From Alphaproteobacteria bacterium (GTDB lineage Bacteria; Pseudomonadota; Alphaproteobacteria; Bin95), in contig CBDBGH010000003.1 of assembly GCA_965205265.1 (NCBI GenBank), positions 4,544,001 to 4,608,000 on the forward strand: DNA of 64,000 bases. The letters run 5' to 3'. Below are positions 50,598 to 56,967 of this stretch, one piece after another (position 1 is the stretch's first letter; each line of letters begins with the position of its first letter). A model generated the notes under the pieces. It ran no database searches, had not been told where the DNA came from, and worked only from the letters and a program-made list of their open reading frames with translations. The translations under genes and the position numbers were made by a program.

Positions 50598-52093
50598 GCC
50601 TGGAACGGTTTCCGCCCGGTCGGAAATCTCCGTGGGAACTGTAGGCCATCGTCTCGTTCTCCTGCTCCGGCCTCCAACCGGGGTCGATCGGCCGGGCGCC
50701 GGAAACCGGTTTGCAGTTCGGGAATTTTACAAGAGCCTCTTCCCGTAATATCGTCGTCCCATCTTCAGGGGGAAGCTGTGGCTCGCCCGCGAGGCCGAAC
50801 GGTCCCGGGGGCTTCCCTGTCATTGAACCGACTTCGAGAGCGCCGCTTCGCTGTCATCGACTGCGGCCTCCATTGCGGCCGAGGCGCCGCAACGAGCCCC
50901 TGCCGGCATCCTTGCAACGGCGCAAGCGCTTAGGCTGGCAGGACGCGCCGGACTTTCGAGGGGACGGGGCCGAATTGCAGGCCCGGTTCCGGCTTATGGC
51001 GCAAACCGCATCCGTGGCGCGTCGGTCCGAAGCCGGGCCGACCCATGACATGCCGGTCCGGACAGGACCGGCGGATAACCGGGAGTAGGATCGAGCTATG
51101 GAAAGTGTGTCCCTGTCGACGAAGAACTCGGAGTTTGAACTCGAACGCCAGAGCTACAGCGACGACCCGCTGGAGGATCGCGAAACCGATCTCTACCGCG
51201 GCGAGTACATCCTGTCCTTTGTGGAGAAGTGGGACGAGCTGATTAACTGGGCGGCGCGCGCCGAGAGCGAGGGACAGTTTTTCATCGATGTGCTTCGCGC
51301 CCGGGGCAAGGCATCCGTGTTGGATGTCGCCTGCGGCACGGGGTTCCACTCGGTGCGCCTGACCGAGGCCGGCTTCGATGTGACATCGAGCGACGGGTCG
51401 GCCACGATGCTGGCCAAGGCCTTCGAGAACGCCAGGGCGCGCGGGCTGATCCTCAAGACGGTCCAGGCCGACTGGCGTTGGCTGAACCGTCACATCCAGG
51501 GCAAGTACGATGCGATCATCTGCCTCGGCAACTCGTTCACCCACCTGCATGAGGAGCAGGACCGCCGCCGCGCCCTGGCCGAGTTCTACGCCGCGCTGAA
51601 GCATGACGGGATGCTGATCCTGGACCAGCGCAACTACGACGCCATGCTGGACGAGGGCTTTTCATCGAAGCACAAATACTACTACTGCGGCGACGAGGTG
51701 AATGCGGAGCCCGAATATATCGACGACAGCCTCGTCCGGATGAAATACAGCTTCGCCGACGGTTCCGACTACACGCTCAACCTCAGTCCGATCCGCAAGA
51801 ATTACATGCGCCGGCTGCTCGGCGAGGCCGGGTTCGCGCGGGTACGCACCTATGGCGACTTCCAGGAGACTTACGCCGAGAACGAGCCGGACTTCTTCAT
51901 TCATATCGCCGAGAAATCCACGCTGCATGTCGTGCGCTGGGGCGGCGGCGTCCGCGAGGAGGGCGAGAGCGACGTTCGCGACATCACCGAGGACTATTAC
52001 GACAGCGACGACGCCGACACGTTCTACTCGATGGTCTGGGGCGGCGAGGACCTGCATCTCGGCATCTACGAGACGACGCAGGACATTCGCGAG

Positions 52094-52308
52094 GCCAGCG
52101 CCGAAACCGTCGACCGGATGATGGCGATGCTGCCGGGTATCGGCCCCGGCTCCCGCGTTCTGGACATCGGCGCCGGCTATGGCGGCTCGGTGCGGCGCGT
52201 CGTCGGGCGGACCGGCTGCACGGCGACATGCCTCAACATCTCCGAGACGCAGAACGACACCAACCGGGCCAGGAACCGGCAGGCGAAACTCGGCAGCCGG
52301 ATATCGGT
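52094..52308 (+). repeat. 215-bp target duplication, left copy
   Basis: GCCAGCGCCGAAACC...GGATATCGGT repeated at 56232-56446. Confidence 0.95.
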
Positions 52309-52427
52309 CCTGACTTCGACGGTTGGGCTGACTTCTGACCGATCTCGCGTCTGGAGTTTTCAGTAAAGCCAATGAGTTGGCAGTTGCGGTGCGGTCAAGC
52401 TGCGTTGTAGTGCCTAGTAAATCTTTG

Positions 52428-52518
52428 AGACTGTCAATGCCTCCGCCACGCGCTACACTCCCCCCATGTTCGTGCGCATCAAGACCTCCCCCAACAGCCC
52501 GCGACGCTCGGTCCAGAT
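52428..52518 (+). repeat. 91-bp target duplication of inner IS, left copy
   Basis: AGACTGTCAATG...GTCCAGAT repeated at 54435-54525 directly after the inner right IR. Confidence 0.93.
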
Positions 52519-52640
52519 CCTGACTTCGACGGTTGGGCTGACTTCTGACCGATCTCGCGTCTGGAGTTTTCAGTAAAGCCAATGAGTTGGCAGTTGCGGT
52601 GCGGTCAAGCTGCGTTGTAGTGCCTAGTAAATCTTTGAGA

Positions 52641-52669
52641 CTGTCAATGCCTCCGCCACGCGCTACACT
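52641..52669 (+). promoter_or_regulatory. Putative sigma70 promoter of transposase (probably leaderless)
   Basis: CTGTCA-17 bp-TACACT, 6 C then ATG, no SD; also at 52431-52459 and 54438-54466. Confidence 0.5.
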
Positions 52670-52675
52670 CCCCCC

Positions 52676-54331
52676 ATGTTCGTGCGCATCAAGACCTCCC
52701 CCAACAGCCCGCGACGCTCGGTCCAGATCGTCGAGGCCGTGCGCGACGGCGGCAAGGTCCGACAGCGCATCGTCCGCCATGTCGGCGTGGCCATGGACGA
52801 GGACGAGCTCGAGCGCCTGAGGCAGCTCGGCGAGTACGTCAAGGCGAAGCTGGAGGACGAGCGTCAGCCGGCATTGTTTGCGCCCGAGAAGATCGCTGAG
52901 CAGGCGATCCGTGTCGGCCGCCGGGGGGACGGCAAGGAGGAACTCCCGGTCGACCTCAAGCAGCTTGAAGAGGAGCAGCGCCTGATCACAGGCATCCACG
53001 AGGTCTATGGCGAGATCTACCGGCTGCTGGGCCTCGACGCGCTGCTGCCGCGCTCGCGCTACCGGGCCTCCCATGACGCGCTGTTCCATGTGGTGATGGC
53101 GCGGGTAGCCAACCCCGACAGCAAGCGGGGCAGCGTGCGCCGGCTCGAGGAGGACTTCGGCGTGAGTCTTCCGCTCGAGAAGGTCTACCGGATGATGGAT
53201 CAGCTCGACGCGACGGTGATCGAGCGACTGCGCACGCGCGTCGGCGAGGCGAGCCGGTCGCTGCTGCCGGAGCCGGTCGCGATCCTCTTCTTCGATTGCA
53301 CCACGCTCTACTTCGAGACGGCCGCCGAGGACGAGCTTCGCCAGCACGGCTTCAGCAAGGACGGCAAACACAAGGACTCGCAGGTTCTGCTGGCGCTGAT
53401 GGTGACGCGCGAAGGGCTGCCGATCAGCTACGAGGTCTTCCCCGGCGCCACCTACGAGGGACACAGCATGGTCCCGGTCCTGCAGGACATGCAGCGCCGC
53501 CACCAGGTGGAGCGCACGGTATGCGTGGCCGACCGGGGCATGCTGAGCGCCGACAACCTCGACGCCATGGACGCCATCGGCGGCGAGTATGTCGTCGGCG
53601 CGCGGCTGCGCAAGCTGCCGCTCGCGCTGCTGGGGCAGGTTCTCGACCCCGGGACCTATGCCCCGCTGGAGGGCTCACAGGACCGCCGGGTCGGCGAGTG
53701 GGAGTACAAGGGCCGTCGCCTGATCGTCGTCTTCTGCCCCCAGCGCGCACGCAAGGACGCGCACGAGCGCCGCCATCAGGTGGAACGCCTGCTCGACAGG
53801 CTGGCCCGCAGCGACAATCCCAGGGAACTGCTCTCCAATCACGGGGCGAAGCGCTTCATCGCCGTCGAGGGCGACGCACGGCTCACGGTGAACCCGGAGA
53901 AGATCGCCGAGGCCGCACGATGGGACGGGCTCACCGGCGTCATCACCAATCTGCGCGACGCGCGCGTCACCGAAGTGATGGCTCACTACCAGGGGCTCTG
54001 GCAGGTCGAGGAGAGCTTCCGGATCACCAAACACGACCTGAAGATACGTCCCATCTGGCACTGGAACCCGGACCGGATCCGCGCTCACATCGCCATCGCC
54101 TTCCTGGCCTTCGCCTGCGTTCGACACCTTGCGTACCGCGTCGCCATCCAGAAGCGGCGGATGTCCCCGGAGGTCATCCGCTCCGCCCTCGTCCACCGCC
54201 AGTGCTCCCTGCTGCGCTGTCGGCAATCGGGCAACCGCTACGTCATCCCCTCGAAGCCGACACCGGCGGCGGAGCAGATTTACGCAACCATGGGGCTGCC
54301 CCTGACGATCACCCCGTATCAACTCGCCTGA
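52676..54331 (+). CDS. IS1634 family DDE transposase (copy 1)
   Basis: FFDCTTLYFE, GFSKDGK, VADRGM, WQVEESFRITK, IRAHIAIAF. Confidence 0.93.
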   Translation: MFVRIKTSPNSPRRSVQIVEAVRDGGKVRQRIVRHVGVAMDEDELERLRQLGEYVKAKLEDERQPALFAPEKIAEQAIRVGRRGDGKEELPVDLKQLEEEQRLITGIHEVYGEIYRLLGLDALLPRSRYRASHDALFHVVMARVANPDSKRGSVRRLEEDFGVSLPLEKVYRMMDQLDATVIERLRTRVGEASRSLLPEPVAILFFDCTTLYFETAAEDELRQHGFSKDGKHKDSQVLLALMVTREGLPISYEVFPGATYEGHSMVPVLQDMQRRHQVERTVCVADRGMLSADNLDAMDAIGGEYVVGARLRKLPLALLGQVLDPGTYAPLEGSQDRRVGEWEYKGRRLIVVFCPQRARKDAHERRHQVERLLDRLARSDNPRELLSNHGAKRFIAVEGDARLTVNPEKIAEAARWDGLTGVITNLRDARVTEVMAHYQGLWQVEESFRITKHDLKIRPIWHWNPDRIRAHIAIAFLAFACVRHLAYRVAIQKRRMSPEVIRSALVHRQCSLLRCRQSGNRYVIPSKPTPAAEQIYATMGLPLTITPYQLA

Positions 54332-54397
54332 CCGTCGACGAAGCACGGCTCGAAGAAATGCCGGATGTAGTGCCTAGCCGAAATGAGAACCAGGCAA

Positions 54398-54410
54398 TAT
54401 CAACTACTTA
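54398..54410 (+). promoter_or_regulatory. IHF consensus site near IS right end
   Basis: TATCAACTACTTA matches WATCAANNNNTTR; also at 56195-56207. Confidence 0.55.
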
Positions 54411-54434
54411 TGCGAATCAACCGTCGAAGTCAGG

Positions 54435-54525
54435 AGACTGTCAATGCCTCCGCCACGCGCTACACTCCCCCCATGTTCGTGCGCATCAAGACCTCCCCCA
54501 ACAGCCCGCGACGCTCGGTCCAGAT
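54435..54525 (+). repeat. 91-bp target duplication, right copy
   Basis: Matches 52428-52518. Confidence 0.93.
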
Positions 54526-56128
54526 CGTCGAGGCCGTGCGCGACGGCGGCAAGGTCCGACAGCGCATCGTCCGCCATGTCGGCGTGGCCATGGACGAGGA
54601 CGAGCTCGAGCGCCTGAGGCAGCTCGGCGAGTACGTCAAGGCGAAGCTGGAGGACGAGCGTCAGCCGGCATTGTTTGCGCCCGAGAAGATCGCTGAGCAG
54701 GCGATCCGTGTCGGCCGCCGGGGGGACGGCAAGGAGGAACTCCCGGTCGACCTCAAGCAGCTTGAAGAGGAGCAGCGCCTGATCACAGGCATCCACGAGG
54801 TCTATGGCGAGATCTACCGGCTGCTGGGCCTCGACGCGCTGCTGCCGCGCTCGCGCTACCGGGCCTCCCATGACGCGCTGTTCCATGTGGTGATGGCGCG
54901 GGTAGCCAACCCCGACAGCAAGCGGGGCAGCGTGCGCCGGCTCGAGGAGGACTTCGGCGTGAGTCTTCCGCTCGAGAAGGTCTACCGGATGATGGATCAG
55001 CTCGACGCGACGGTGATCGAGCGACTGCGCACGCGCGTCGGCGAGGCGAGCCGGTCGCTGCTGCCGGAGCCGGTCGCGATCCTCTTCTTCGATTGCACCA
55101 CGCTCTACTTCGAGACGGCCGCCGAGGACGAGCTTCGCCAGCACGGCTTCAGCAAGGACGGCAAACACAAGGACTCGCAGGTTCTGCTGGCGCTGATGGT
55201 GACGCGCGAAGGGCTGCCGATCAGCTACGAGGTCTTCCCCGGCGCCACCTACGAGGGACACAGCATGGTCCCGGTCCTGCAGGACATGCAGCGCCGCCAC
55301 CAGGTGGAGCGCACGGTATGCGTGGCCGACCGGGGCATGCTGAGCGCCGACAACCTCGACGCCATGGACGCCATCGGCGGCGAGTATGTCGTCGGCGCGC
55401 GGCTGCGCAAGCTGCCGCTCGCGCTGCTGGGGCAGGTTCTCGACCCCGGGACCTATGCCCCGCTGGAGGGCTCACAGGACCGCCGGGTCGGCGAGTGGGA
55501 GTACAAGGGCCGTCGCCTGATCGTCGTCTTCTGCCCCCAGCGCGCACGCAAGGACGCGCACGAGCGCCGCCATCAGGTGGAACGCCTGCTCGACAGGCTG
55601 GCCCGCAGCGACAATCCCAGGGAACTGCTCTCCAATCACGGGGCGAAGCGCTTCATCGCCGTCGAGGGCGACGCACGGCTCACGGTGAACCCGGAGAAGA
55701 TCGCCGAGGCCGCACGATGGGACGGGCTCACCGGCGTCATCACCAATCTGCGCGACGCGCGCGTCACCGAAGTGATGGCTCACTACCAGGGGCTCTGGCA
55801 GGTCGAGGAGAGCTTCCGGATCACCAAACACGACCTGAAGATACGTCCCATCTGGCACTGGAACCCGGACCGGATCCGCGCTCACATCGCCATCGCCTTC
55901 CTGGCCTTCGCCTGCGTTCGACACCTTGCGTACCGCGTCGCCATCCAGAAGCGGCGGATGTCCCCGGAGGTCATCCGCTCCGCCCTCGTCCACCGCCAGT
56001 GCTCCCTGCTGCGCTGTCGGCAATCGGGCAACCGCTACGTCATCCCCTCGAAGCCGACACCGGCGGCGGAGCAGATTTACGCAACCATGGGGCTGCCCCT
56101 GACGATCACCCCGTATCAACTCGCCTGA
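54473..56128 (+). CDS. IS1634 family DDE transposase (copy 2, same 551-aa translation)
   Basis: Translation matches copy 1; start codon supplied by the 91-bp duplication. Confidence 0.93.
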   Translation: MFVRIKTSPNSPRRSVQIVEAVRDGGKVRQRIVRHVGVAMDEDELERLRQLGEYVKAKLEDERQPALFAPEKIAEQAIRVGRRGDGKEELPVDLKQLEEEQRLITGIHEVYGEIYRLLGLDALLPRSRYRASHDALFHVVMARVANPDSKRGSVRRLEEDFGVSLPLEKVYRMMDQLDATVIERLRTRVGEASRSLLPEPVAILFFDCTTLYFETAAEDELRQHGFSKDGKHKDSQVLLALMVTREGLPISYEVFPGATYEGHSMVPVLQDMQRRHQVERTVCVADRGMLSADNLDAMDAIGGEYVVGARLRKLPLALLGQVLDPGTYAPLEGSQDRRVGEWEYKGRRLIVVFCPQRARKDAHERRHQVERLLDRLARSDNPRELLSNHGAKRFIAVEGDARLTVNPEKIAEAARWDGLTGVITNLRDARVTEVMAHYQGLWQVEESFRITKHDLKIRPIWHWNPDRIRAHIAIAFLAFACVRHLAYRVAIQKRRMSPEVIRSALVHRQCSLLRCRQSGNRYVIPSKPTPAAEQIYATMGLPLTITPYQLA

Positions 56129-56231
56129 CCGTCGACGAAGCACGGCTCGAAGAAATGCCGGATGTAGTGCCTAGCCGAAATGAGAACCAGGCAATATCAA
56201 CTACTTATGCGAATCAACCGTCGAAGTCAGG

Positions 56232-56446
56232 GCCAGCGCCGAAACCGTCGACCGGATGATGGCGATGCTGCCGGGTATCGGCCCCGGCTCCCGCGTTCTG
56301 GACATCGGCGCCGGCTATGGCGGCTCGGTGCGGCGCGTCGTCGGGCGGACCGGCTGCACGGCGACATGCCTCAACATCTCCGAGACGCAGAACGACACCA
56401 ACCGGGCCAGGAACCGGCAGGCGAAACTCGGCAGCCGGATATCGGT
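56232..56446 (+). repeat. 215-bp target duplication, right copy
   Basis: Matches 52094-52308. Confidence 0.95.
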
Positions 56447-56967
56447 GGTGCACGGCGTCTTCGAGGACATCCCCGACCCGGACGCCAGCTATGACGCGGT
56501 ATGGAGCCAGGACGCCCTCCTGCATTCCGACCAGCGCGACAGGGTGCTGGCCGAAGTCTGGCGCGTGCTGAAGCCGGGCGGCCACTTCGTGTTCACCGAC
56601 CCGATGCAGGCCGACGACGTGCCGGACGGCGTGCTCCAGCCCGTTTACGACCGGCTCCAGCTCAACAGTCTCGGCTCCATGCGCTTCTACCGGGAGGCGG
56701 CGCAGGCGCTGGGCTTCGAGGTGTTGGCGCAGGAGGACATGACCCGTCATCTCCGCACCCACTACGACCGGGTGCGGGAGGAGCTCACGGCCGGTTACGA
56801 CAAGCTGCGGGAAAACGGCGCCTCGGCGGCGTATCTCGACAAGATGACCGTCGGCCTCGAGAACTGGGTGAAGGCCGCGGATGCCGGACACCTGGCCTGG
56901 GGCATCCAGCTTTTCCGCAAGCCGGAGTGAGGCGCCGGCGCGCCCGCCGCACCGGCCCGTTTGCATC

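Follow-up and report, generated by a model that had tools for sequence, protein, structure and literature searches.

IS1549 and IS1634, for which long variable repeats were reportedly described in 1998 and 1999, respectively, raised the question of how a DDE transposase gives rise to target duplications that vary in length and can reach hundreds of bases. The same question is raised by a locus in the 64,000-nucleotide stretch of alphaproteobacterial DNA analysed here (the window), where two copies of an insertion sequence (IS), one nested in the other, interrupt a methyltransferase gene and are bracketed by direct repeats that a sequence-only reading had assigned to a single transposase. The locus is organised as follows:

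51098–52308, + strand: 5′ part of the host gene, encoding a fused glycine/sarcosine N-methyltransferase and sarcosine/dimethylglycine N-methyltransferase
52094–52308, no strand: 215-bp target-site duplication of the outer IS, copy 1; 100% identical to 56232–56446, single in relatives
52309–52518, + strand: left 210 bp of the outer IS (IS positions 1–210), with the left inverted repeat at 52309–52325
52428–52518, no strand: 91-bp duplication by the inner IS, copy 1; IS positions 120–210 of the outer copy
52519–54434, + strand: inner IS, complete, 1916 bp, with inverted repeats at 52519–52535 and 54418–54434; genome position C3:4596519–4598434
52676–54331, + strand: transposase gene of the inner IS, 551 aa, IS1634 family (NF033559, PF01609; D207, D286, E445)
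54435–54525, no strand: 91-bp duplication, copy 2; exact match to 52428–52518
54435–56231, + strand: remainder of the outer IS (IS positions 120–1916), with the right inverted repeat at 56215–56231
56232–56446, no strand: 215-bp target-site duplication, copy 2; 100% identical to 52094–52308
56232–56930, + strand: 3′ part of the host methyltransferase gene (NF041675, profile positions 57–277)

Self-comparison of the window gives a host repeat of 216 nt at 100% identity (52093–52308 and 56231–56446). With the ends of the outer IS set at CCTGACTTCGACGGTTG (52309–52325) and its reverse complement (56215–56231), the repeat becomes an exact 215 bp (52094–52308 and 56232–56446), the one-base ambiguity arising because the base preceding the repeat and the final IS base are both G. 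The flanks of the inner IS (52428–52518 and 54435–54525) form an exact repeat of 91 bp that corresponds to positions 120–210 of the outer IS. Both repeats adjoin the inverted repeats without a gap, and the two lengths and the direct contact read earlier from the letters are confirmed for both IS copies. The inner IS, which sits in the left end of the outer copy (52309–56231), is identical to it, at 100% over positions 1–211 and 119–1916. The outer transposase frame (54473–56128, in an open frame of 54383–56128) is complete, with a 100% match over 551 aa, because the 91-bp duplication contains the start codon.

In a profile search, the 5′ part of the host gene matches NF051855 at 454 bits (cut-off 350) over aa 18–274 and NF041675 partially over aa 295–404; in the ORF list its open frame extends into the IS as far as 52366, and the ORF at 56256–56930 begins within copy 2 of the 215-bp duplication. 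This fused gene serves glycine betaine synthesis. One IS copy entered the betaine methyltransferase gene with a 215-bp stagger, and a second later entered the first with a stagger of 91 bp.

The 215-bp sequence is present once in the uninterrupted methyltransferase gene in all five congeneric genomes compared, where exactly 215 bp are common to both flanks. The uninterrupted site is also found in contigs of other sequencing runs, of 1744 bp (X22), 3821 bp (X23) and 1087 bp (X1), which read across 51700–52308 and then continue with the letters following 56446. Since the 215 bp occur once in uninterrupted genes, this repeat, the one that the empty-site comparison covered, is a true target-site duplication. 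In run X19, the 216-bp repeat forms a contig of its own at a depth of 82, against 51 for the flank, and a loose end carries the right end of the IS ahead of 52093; X19 may be the source sample of the assembly and so lends no independent support. The ratio of contig depth between IS and flank is about 34 in X19, 1.6 in X22 and 16 in X23, depths that are not to be read as copy numbers. The insertion in the methyltransferase gene is polymorphic between samples. Both window insertions look recent, as had been proposed, since there is 100% identity between the repeats and between the IS copies, and 0-difference contigs in two other studies lack the insertion.

The genome contains about 60 near-identical copies of the element, 55 of them full-length with 99.9–100% identity; the host bacterium is sponge-associated. 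Forty-eight of the 55 carry their own exact flanking repeat, of 6–573 bp, and the repeats in the window are therefore far beyond chance. Across the whole genome, exact repeats of 5–573 bp (median 143) bracket the IS in 57 insertion events, a set that includes five interrupted copies, the window's outer copy and three pairs whose flanks were exchanged by recombination. All 57 repeats are 100% identical and touch both IS ends to the exact base. Their lengths differ from copy to copy, as they do in 50 further events in relatives. With an empty site that is single-copy and other copies that behave alike, both window repeats can be taken as target duplications by the same element; genome-wide, the other copies show long variable duplications, not the exclusively short ones that the sequence-only reading had named as evidence against this.

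The polarity is marked, 57 duplications standing against three full-length copies and two single ends without a repeat or partner. In a comparison with five congeneric genomes, aimed at deletion-type insertions, one of the three repeat-less copies found no match and two found only one conserved flank, which speaks neither for nor against such insertions. All the events are survivors, none having been observed live, and selection or loss could have shaped the length range and polarity; for instance, insertions with long repeats might be lost when those repeats recombine with each other.

Recombination between copies is evident in the three exchanged-flank pairs, one of which is a reciprocal inversion, and a 1.3-kb tandem duplication adjoins one IS copy. 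These observations would fit a history in which a short duplication was made at insertion and the long repeats arose later by unequal recombination, gene conversion or segmental duplication. We regard such a history as highly improbable in view of the base-exact contact and full identity in 57 of 57 cases, the lack of any short duplication within the long repeats, and a cut-site preference at the outer boundaries that recombination would not be expected to produce. Both duplication boundaries prefer a cut between G or C and A. At 114 ends in this genome, whose base content is 16% A and 68.2% G+C, position +1 is A in 87, position −1 is G in 74, C in 32 and T in 2, and position −2 is A in 53. 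The same logo is obtained at the repeat boundary remote from any IS end, and relatives share the core, with A at +1 in 74 of 100 ends.

The element is a 1916-bp IS with 17-bp perfect terminal inverted repeats and one 551-aa DDE transposase. The transposase matches the NCBIfam profile NF033559 (IS1634 family) at 341.3 bits, against a cut-off of 100, over profile positions 1–482 of 483, and PF01609 (DDE_Tnp_1) at 54 bits; its score of 46 bits with the IS4 model is under the cut-off. Residues D207, D286, E445 and K452 are invariant in the transposase alignment, and position 441 is L, not R. This incomplete YREK motif, together with the long stretch that separates the second D from the E (159 aa from D286 to E445), matches the IS1634-family description in a 2008 review (PMC2266710), and the length and ends (CCTGACTT) fit the family size of 1500–2000 bp and consensus C-----YT given there. 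The same review describes an AT-rich duplication of 5–6 bp as typical and names IS1549 and IS1634 as exceptions (PMC2266710); here, 2 of 57 events are of 5–6 bp, and the median is 143 bp. The element is thus an IS1634-family member and a further case of the long-duplication type already described for IS1549 and IS1634, and the earlier comparison with those two elements was apt.

IS1634, from Mycoplasma mycoides subsp. mycoides SC (also ISMbov3), is the namesake of the NF033559 family. Massive copy expansion is common to both elements, IS1634 having 60 copies in strain PG1 according to PMC3053259, but its host is a low-G+C Mollicute rather than a 68% G+C alphaproteobacterium, and the two are compared here by description and family profile. 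IS1549, from Mycobacterium smegmatis, is placed in the IS1634 family (formerly named after IS1549) and leaves long direct repeats upon insertion, as stated in the 2008 review (PMC2266710); its host is actinobacterial rather than alphaproteobacterial, and the comparison is again by description. The long variable repeats of IS1634 and IS1549 span 8–514 bp in that review (PMC2266710), as against up to 573 bp here and 1318 bp in close relatives. A literature search found no report of a cut-site preference or length distribution for IS1634. The catalytic domain of Tn5/IS50 and other IS4-family transposases is likewise of the DDE_Tnp_1 type, but the review gives them fixed duplications of 7–13 bp (8–9 bp for IS50) and a complete YREK motif (PMC2266710), whereas the present transposase has a leucine (L441) in place of the motif arginine and a long D-to-E spacer of 159 aa.

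Other elements of the IS1634 family make short duplications. Fixed 6-bp duplications are given for ISPfe2 (Paracoccus) and ISGka5 (Geobacillus) in PMC3281130 and PMC8024623. In congeneric genomes, groups B, C, D and E match NF033559 at 296–372 bits; group A, whose transposase frame is unclassified, is placed with group C because their ends are near-identical (CCCAACTTCAACAG and CCTGACTTCGACGG, respectively) and they share a 5-bp repeat. Groups A and C have a 5-bp duplication in 16 of 16 loci, and a 4-bp duplication is found in 14/19 loci of group B, 12/12 of group D and 4/4 of group E. These elements are similar in size to the present one (1.9–2.1 kb), but their transposases align with it at 24–29% identity and lie on the opposite side of a 99/98 split that, in a tree of 15 sequences (IS1549 and IS1634 prototypes not included), separates the long-repeat elements from all 4–5-bp elements. 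On the long-repeat side lies a Mycobacterium plasmid element, assigned to the IS1634 family at family level only, with a 45-bp exact repeat and ends beginning CCTGAG. In this tree, the long-duplication trait is restricted to one branch of the IS1634 family, and the alignment of long- and short-duplication transposases shows no whole domain that one set has and the other lacks.

In other Proteobacteria, relatives with identities as low as 50% have repeats of 16–1318 bp, such exact repeats being carried by 50 of 72 loci with an inverted-repeat pair, in at least seven genomes; those of 1309 and 1318 bp stem from metagenome-assembled genomes and are taken from the assembly sequence alone. Single copies in two genomes, G005 and G001 (87–89% protein identity), have no repeat within about 1.3 kb, and a plasmid collection contained no relative above 32% identity. 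The family search covered 14 control genomes, Mycobacterium and Mycoplasma being absent among them. Another reading is that the repeats are assembly artefacts around a high-copy repeat. The assembly, of three contigs, holds about 60 identical 1.9-kb repeats, and its contamination estimate of 7.28% shows duplicated markers. We nevertheless give this explanation next to no credence: the X19 short-read contigs yield the graph expected for repeat–IS–repeat, the phenomenon recurs in at least seven other assemblies and in the Mycobacterium plasmid record (45 bp), and the sequence preference is present at boundaries remote from the IS.

Overall, we conclude, with a probability of about 0.9, that this is an active IS1634-family IS whose ends join the target strands at sites without fixed spacing, producing long duplications. 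The two 3′ ends would attack opposite strands, each preferentially between G (or C) and A, and the 5′ stagger would range from 5 to about 570 bp here and reach about 1300 bp in close relatives; the staggered interval, once copied by host synthesis, would become the long direct repeats. We infer that the two strand transfers are uncoupled. In Tn5, both ends are said to be joined within one dimeric complex.

The repeat lengths are compatible with an exponential distribution (KS p 0.48 for the 57 events and 0.17 for 107 pooled with relatives). No helical periodicity was found in either set (best-period p 0.47 and 0.57; power at 10.5 bp 0.66 and 1.86); this check, suggested by the sequence-only reading, counts against loops of stiff duplex DNA that are in phase with the helix. 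Neither near-ties among the lengths nor their clustering, such as the six values at 198–205, exceeded jittered controls (p 0.38, 0.27), and a gap at 15–32 bp, with no events in this genome, was dropped on finding repeats of 16, 21 and 25 bp in relatives.

We tentatively prefer, at less than even odds, a sequential course in which joining of the first end is followed by synthesis or unwinding that is primed from the nicked target 3′-OH and travels along the target in a single direction until, after a random delay, the second end is joined to a permissive site. One-way travel with a random delay would give fixed polarity and exponential lengths, the two features on which this preference is based. 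A model of scanning to the first good site was rejected: in site-matrix scoring of every interior position, repeat interiors contained 369 and 311 permissive sites (score ≥3) against 259 expected, with similar results at scores of 4 and 5. As the interiors are not depleted, the second end does not simply join at the first good site, and scanning would need a low chance of capture per site.

It is possible, though in our judgement unlikely, that both ends join in concert onto a target that is looped, wrapped by nucleoid proteins or unwound (a transcription bubble or R-loop), the stagger reflecting the size of the loop or bubble. Looped or single-stranded DNA had been put forward as a possible target in the sequence-only reading. 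G+C content is lower in the repeats and around them (63.4% and 65.7%, respectively) than in the genome (68.2%), and a crude caller based on high-GC3 open frames places both ends in non-coding DNA in 31 of 56 events, where 13.7 would be expected; sites mostly outside such frames would fit easily melted or protein-bound DNA. Against concerted joining, 10–11-bp periodicity is absent from both 57 and 107 events, and about half of the staggers are below 140 bp, many of them 33–100 bp, a range (33–140 bp) in which naked duplex DNA, being stiff, loops poorly. Concerted joining alone also leaves the excess of duplications over deletions unexplained.

We think it improbable that the ends join two sister duplexes behind a replication fork, slightly offset, so that the interval appears twice in one recombinant. 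The largest repeats, of about 1.3 kb, approach the size of bacterial Okazaki fragments, which is of that order, and the many copies imply that the element is itself copied. Without an added constraint, however, this course predicts deletions about as often as duplications, where 57 duplications were seen against at most three full-length copies and two single ends with no repeat. Nor is there an orientation bias relative to replication, the second check that had been suggested (25:29), a weak result because the GC skew is not a clean V and the origin estimate is unreliable.

Returning to sequential joining, a more specific version, which we hold to be rather unlikely, is that one IS1634 branch abandoned coupled target capture and that host strand-displacement or restart synthesis, primed from the first nick, provides the moving junction to which the second end is joined. 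If so, duplication length would be a stopwatch reading of the delay between two chemical steps, and this new mode of DDE transposition would account for fixed polarity, exponential lengths and duplications as long as 1.3 kb. According to the 2008 review, no mechanistic model had been proposed for long variable repeats (PMC2266710), and a literature search found none since. The present data set offers 57 clean natural events in one genome and 50 in relatives, a cut-site preference that each boundary shows independently, a negative test for helical periodicity, and a contrast with same-genus sister elements that make fixed 4–5-bp duplications; the transposase, being proteobacterial, could be tried in Escherichia coli.

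For the bacterium, the insertion disrupts a gene of glycine betaine synthesis. Long duplications can preserve open frames, as with the outer transposase gene here, and may permit exact loss of the element by recombination; if the moving-junction mechanism is true, long repeats would make insertions reversible via homologous recombination.

Repeat searching of the window and direct reading of its sequence define one insertion sequence (IS) lying inside another.

Layout of the nested insertion (window positions)
up to 52308: host DNA, left
52094-52308 = 56232-56446: 215-bp host repeat, exact
from 52309: outer IS, left end CCTGACTTCGACGGTTG
from 52519: inner IS, left end with the same 17-mer, 210 bp after the outer start
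52519-54434: inner IS, complete, 1916 bp, terminating in the reverse complement of CCTGACTTCGACGGTTG
after 54434 to 56231: rest of the outer IS, from its position 120 to its own right end
52428-52518 = 54435-54525: 91-bp repeat (outer IS positions 120-210), exact
from 56232: host DNA, right

Both repeats directly abut the inverted repeats, so that the description of 215-bp and 91-bp duplications in the sequence-only reading stands as written; the repeat search returns 216 nt for the longer one, the base before it and the last base of the IS both being G. There are two junctions, IS position 210 to 1 and 1916 to 120, from which we conclude that a complete copy inserted within another copy. A simple tandem duplication was rejected as the origin of this layout, as it would not yield these junctions. 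The 91-bp duplication takes in the start codon of the transposase gene (IS position 158), so the outer IS, although interrupted, retains an entire transposase frame of 551 aa, contained in the open frame 54383-56128.

The 551-residue frame of the inner copy (52676-54331) matches the NCBIfam IS1634-family model over the entire profile with a score of 341 bits (cut-off 100), and also contains a Pfam DDE_Tnp_1 domain. Residues D207, D286 and E445 are invariant among its relatives, the arginine of the YREK motif is replaced by leucine, and the D-to-E spacer is 159 residues long. An altered YREK arginine and a long spacer are given as traits of IS1634-type enzymes in the family review (PMC2266710). 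The interrupted host gene is a fusion of a glycine/sarcosine N-methyltransferase (454 bits, cut-off 350) and a sarcosine/dimethylglycine N-methyltransferase, a route of glycine betaine synthesis, and it is the latter part that the insertion splits. The upstream open reading frame (ORF) retains the entire glycine/sarcosine methyltransferase domain, and a second ORF (56256-56930), beginning within the 215-bp duplication, covers positions 57-277 of the sarcosine/dimethylglycine methyltransferase profile, including the SAM-binding domain. The fused gene may thus have been split rather than destroyed.

The 215-bp repeat is a true target duplication. The methyltransferase gene is present in ten congeneric genomes at 90-97% identity, and in all five of those retrieved for flank mapping the left flank (to 52308) and the right flank (from 56232) fall on one unbroken gene with an overlap of exactly 215 bp. 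As independent support, three contigs from public sequencing runs span 51700-52308 and then read GGTGCACGGCGTC..., the letters that follow 56446. These contigs, from runs X22 (1744 bp, 0 differences), X23 (3821 bp, 0 differences) and X1 (1087 bp, 11 differences), represent the empty site; since contigs prove presence and not absence, we claim only that the empty form exists in those runs. X22 and X23 belong to other studies than X19, a run possibly made from the source sample, in which the contig graph is as expected for a repeat-IS-repeat arrangement. There, the flank contig terminates 30 bases into the repeat, the repeat forms a separate 216-bp contig at a depth of 82 versus 51 for the flank, and a loose end ahead of 52093 reads the IS right end. 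A 56-bp contig spans 52308/52309 with 30 and 26 letters on either side, slightly below the 31-letter bridging rule. The pair of events in the window is polymorphic and evidently recent.

A BLAST search of the whole genome (5.70 Mb, three contigs) with the element identified 55 full-length copies of 99.9-100% identity and some eight more that are interrupted or truncated. All lie on the 5.46-Mb contig, C3, where they are unevenly distributed, with 14 in one 0.5-Mb bin; the small contigs C1 and C2 (193 kb and 43 kb) hold no full copy, and two partial matches to the IS1634 family, both under the cut-off, lie on C2. An exact flanking repeat of its own, 6-573 bp long, accompanies each of 48 of the 55 full-length copies. 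Pairing each left end with each right end revealed further events: five copies interrupted by other insertions (5, 151, 161, 187 and 374 bp), the outer copy of the window (215 bp) and three cross-pairs in which flanks are exchanged between two copies (76, 100 and 172 bp). The same comparison of all left with all right ends gave no repeat or partner for three full-length copies and two single ends. The resulting 57 events have a mean of 179 bp, a median of 143 bp and a maximum of 573 bp; clearly, the short-only duplications that would have told against the sequence-only reading are not what the other copies show.

The 100- and 172-bp repeats are swapped between C3:4892940-4894855 (-) and C3:5202993-5204908 (+), the signature left when two inverted IS copies recombine, here in a reciprocal inversion of some 310 kb, and the 76-bp repeat is common to copies at C3:2317705 and 4290172, 2 Mb apart. 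At C3:4811944-4814566, adjoining a full copy with a 287-bp repeat, is a tandem duplication of about 1.3 kb (96.4% identity) made up of some 600 bp of host DNA and bases 1-696 of an IS copy. The copies at C3:690261-694973 and 4216736-4221452 are both interrupted at IS position 1333/1334-1341 by an insert of some 2.8 kb that shows an overlap of 8-9 bp, a site that seems to be targeted by another mobile element.

Alignment of 114 strand-transfer sites, taking +1 as the base joined to the IS 3' end, revealed a distinct preference. Position +1 is A at 87 sites in a genome whose A content is 16%; position -1 is G at 74, C at 32 and T at only 2; and A occupies -2 at 53 sites and -3 at 44. Both duplication boundaries yield the same logo. 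As one of the two positions in each event is the far edge of the repeat, remote from any IS end, the preference is not an artefact of the placement of IS ends, nor would later recombination produce it. Among relatives of the element, A is found at +1 in 74 of 100 ends and G or C at -1 in 81. The G+C content is 63.4% in the repeats, 65.7% in their flanks and 68.2% in the genome, and, as judged with a crude gene caller based on GC3, 31 of 56 events have both ends in non-coding sequence, where 13.7 would be expected.

The 57 lengths fit an exponential distribution (KS p 0.48). The periodicity that the sequence-only reading proposed to test for is absent from them (best period 14 bp, p 0.47 versus jittered controls; power 0.66 at 10.5 bp), and near-ties or clusters are not in excess. 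Pooling with 50 events from relatives gave the same outcome (KS p 0.17, periodicity p 0.57). Good sites are not depleted from the repeat interiors, which argues that joining of the second end is not just a matter of the closest permissive position.

The relatives come from a scan of species-representative genomes, which gave 78 loci, mostly in long-read metagenome-assembled genomes (MAGs), from Alphaproteobacteria, Candidatus Poriferihabitaceae, Pseudohongiella, Pseudomonadales and Paracoccaceae. At the termini, the motif CC[TC]GACTT[CT]GA[CT] is kept even where protein identity falls to 44%. Exact flanking repeats of 16-1318 bp are present in 50 of the 72 loci with paired ends, and near-exact repeats of 217-609 bp in 4 more, so that long repeats are a trait of the whole clade. 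The host gene and the IS clade were encountered almost exclusively in metagenomes of sponges and in sponge-associated MAGs (runs X1-X24, record titles), and the spread of the element appears to take in sponge symbionts from several orders of Proteobacteria.

Other IS1634-family elements of the same genus, in contrast, make short repeats. Four groups from congeneric genomes, B-E, match the family model at 296-372 bits; a fifth, A, whose submitted frame matched no model, was placed with C by its near-identical ends and repeat length. Exact 5-bp repeats flank 10/10 loci with both ends in A and 6/6 in C; 4-bp repeats flank 14/19 in B, 12/12 in D and 4/4 in E. Genomes G005, G015 and G016 (loci L017-L073) carry their own expansions of such elements, roughly 10 to more than 25 matches each, with strict 4-bp YTAR or 5-bp TCAAG-like target duplications. 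Short repeats are also what published work describes for ordinary members of the family, with 6 bp each for ISPfe2 (PMC3281130) and ISGka5 (PMC8024623). A Mycobacterium plasmid carries an IS1634-family element with an exact 45-bp repeat. In a maximum-likelihood tree of 15 sequences, a small sample, unrooted and with the IS1549 and IS1634 prototypes left out, a 99/98-supported split places all long-repeat elements on one side and all 4-5-bp elements on the other. On the Rhodococcus sp. DMU1 plasmid NZ_CP050953.1 (2718-5906), an IS1634-family element is nested in a relative of 86-89% identity from which about 310 bp are missing instead of duplicated; this may reflect an insertion of opposite polarity or a later rearrangement.

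In DDE transposase chemistry, direct repeats of n bp arise when the 3' ends are joined to opposite strands with an n-base 5' stagger and the interval is then copied. The difference in this element is that n is not fixed. Several features suggest that no single rigid complex, acting on one short piece of duplex, carries out both joinings: the ends share a site preference, helical phasing is absent, many staggers measure 33-140 bp, the lengths are exponentially distributed, and the polarity is almost always that of duplication. The argument from polarity counts for less, since products of the deletion type might simply be lost. We tentatively favour sequential joining, at a probability of roughly 35%: the first joining would leave a target 3'-OH, from which synthesis or unwinding would advance one way only, and the second end would follow after a delay of random length, joining wherever a site is permissive. 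Concerted attack of both ends on looped or unwound DNA is an alternative that we rate as only slightly less likely, and joining across sister duplexes at a replication fork is improbable; sequence alone cannot decide among the three.

Long direct repeats of variable length were the founding oddity of IS1549 and IS1634, and the present element shares this trait; it adds to a known type and founds none. The family review gives their repeats as 8-514 bp and states that no mechanistic model had been put forward (PMC2266710), and our search of later literature on IS1634, IS1549 and variable-length or long target duplications found no model and no survey of lengths or sites. What is added is a proteobacterial clade with the trait, repeats reaching 1.3 kb, a cut-site preference with a length distribution devoid of periodicity, sister elements of the same genus with fixed short repeats for contrast, and one locus with a polymorphic, evidently recent pair of insertions. 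Long duplications can, furthermore, leave the reading frame of their target intact.
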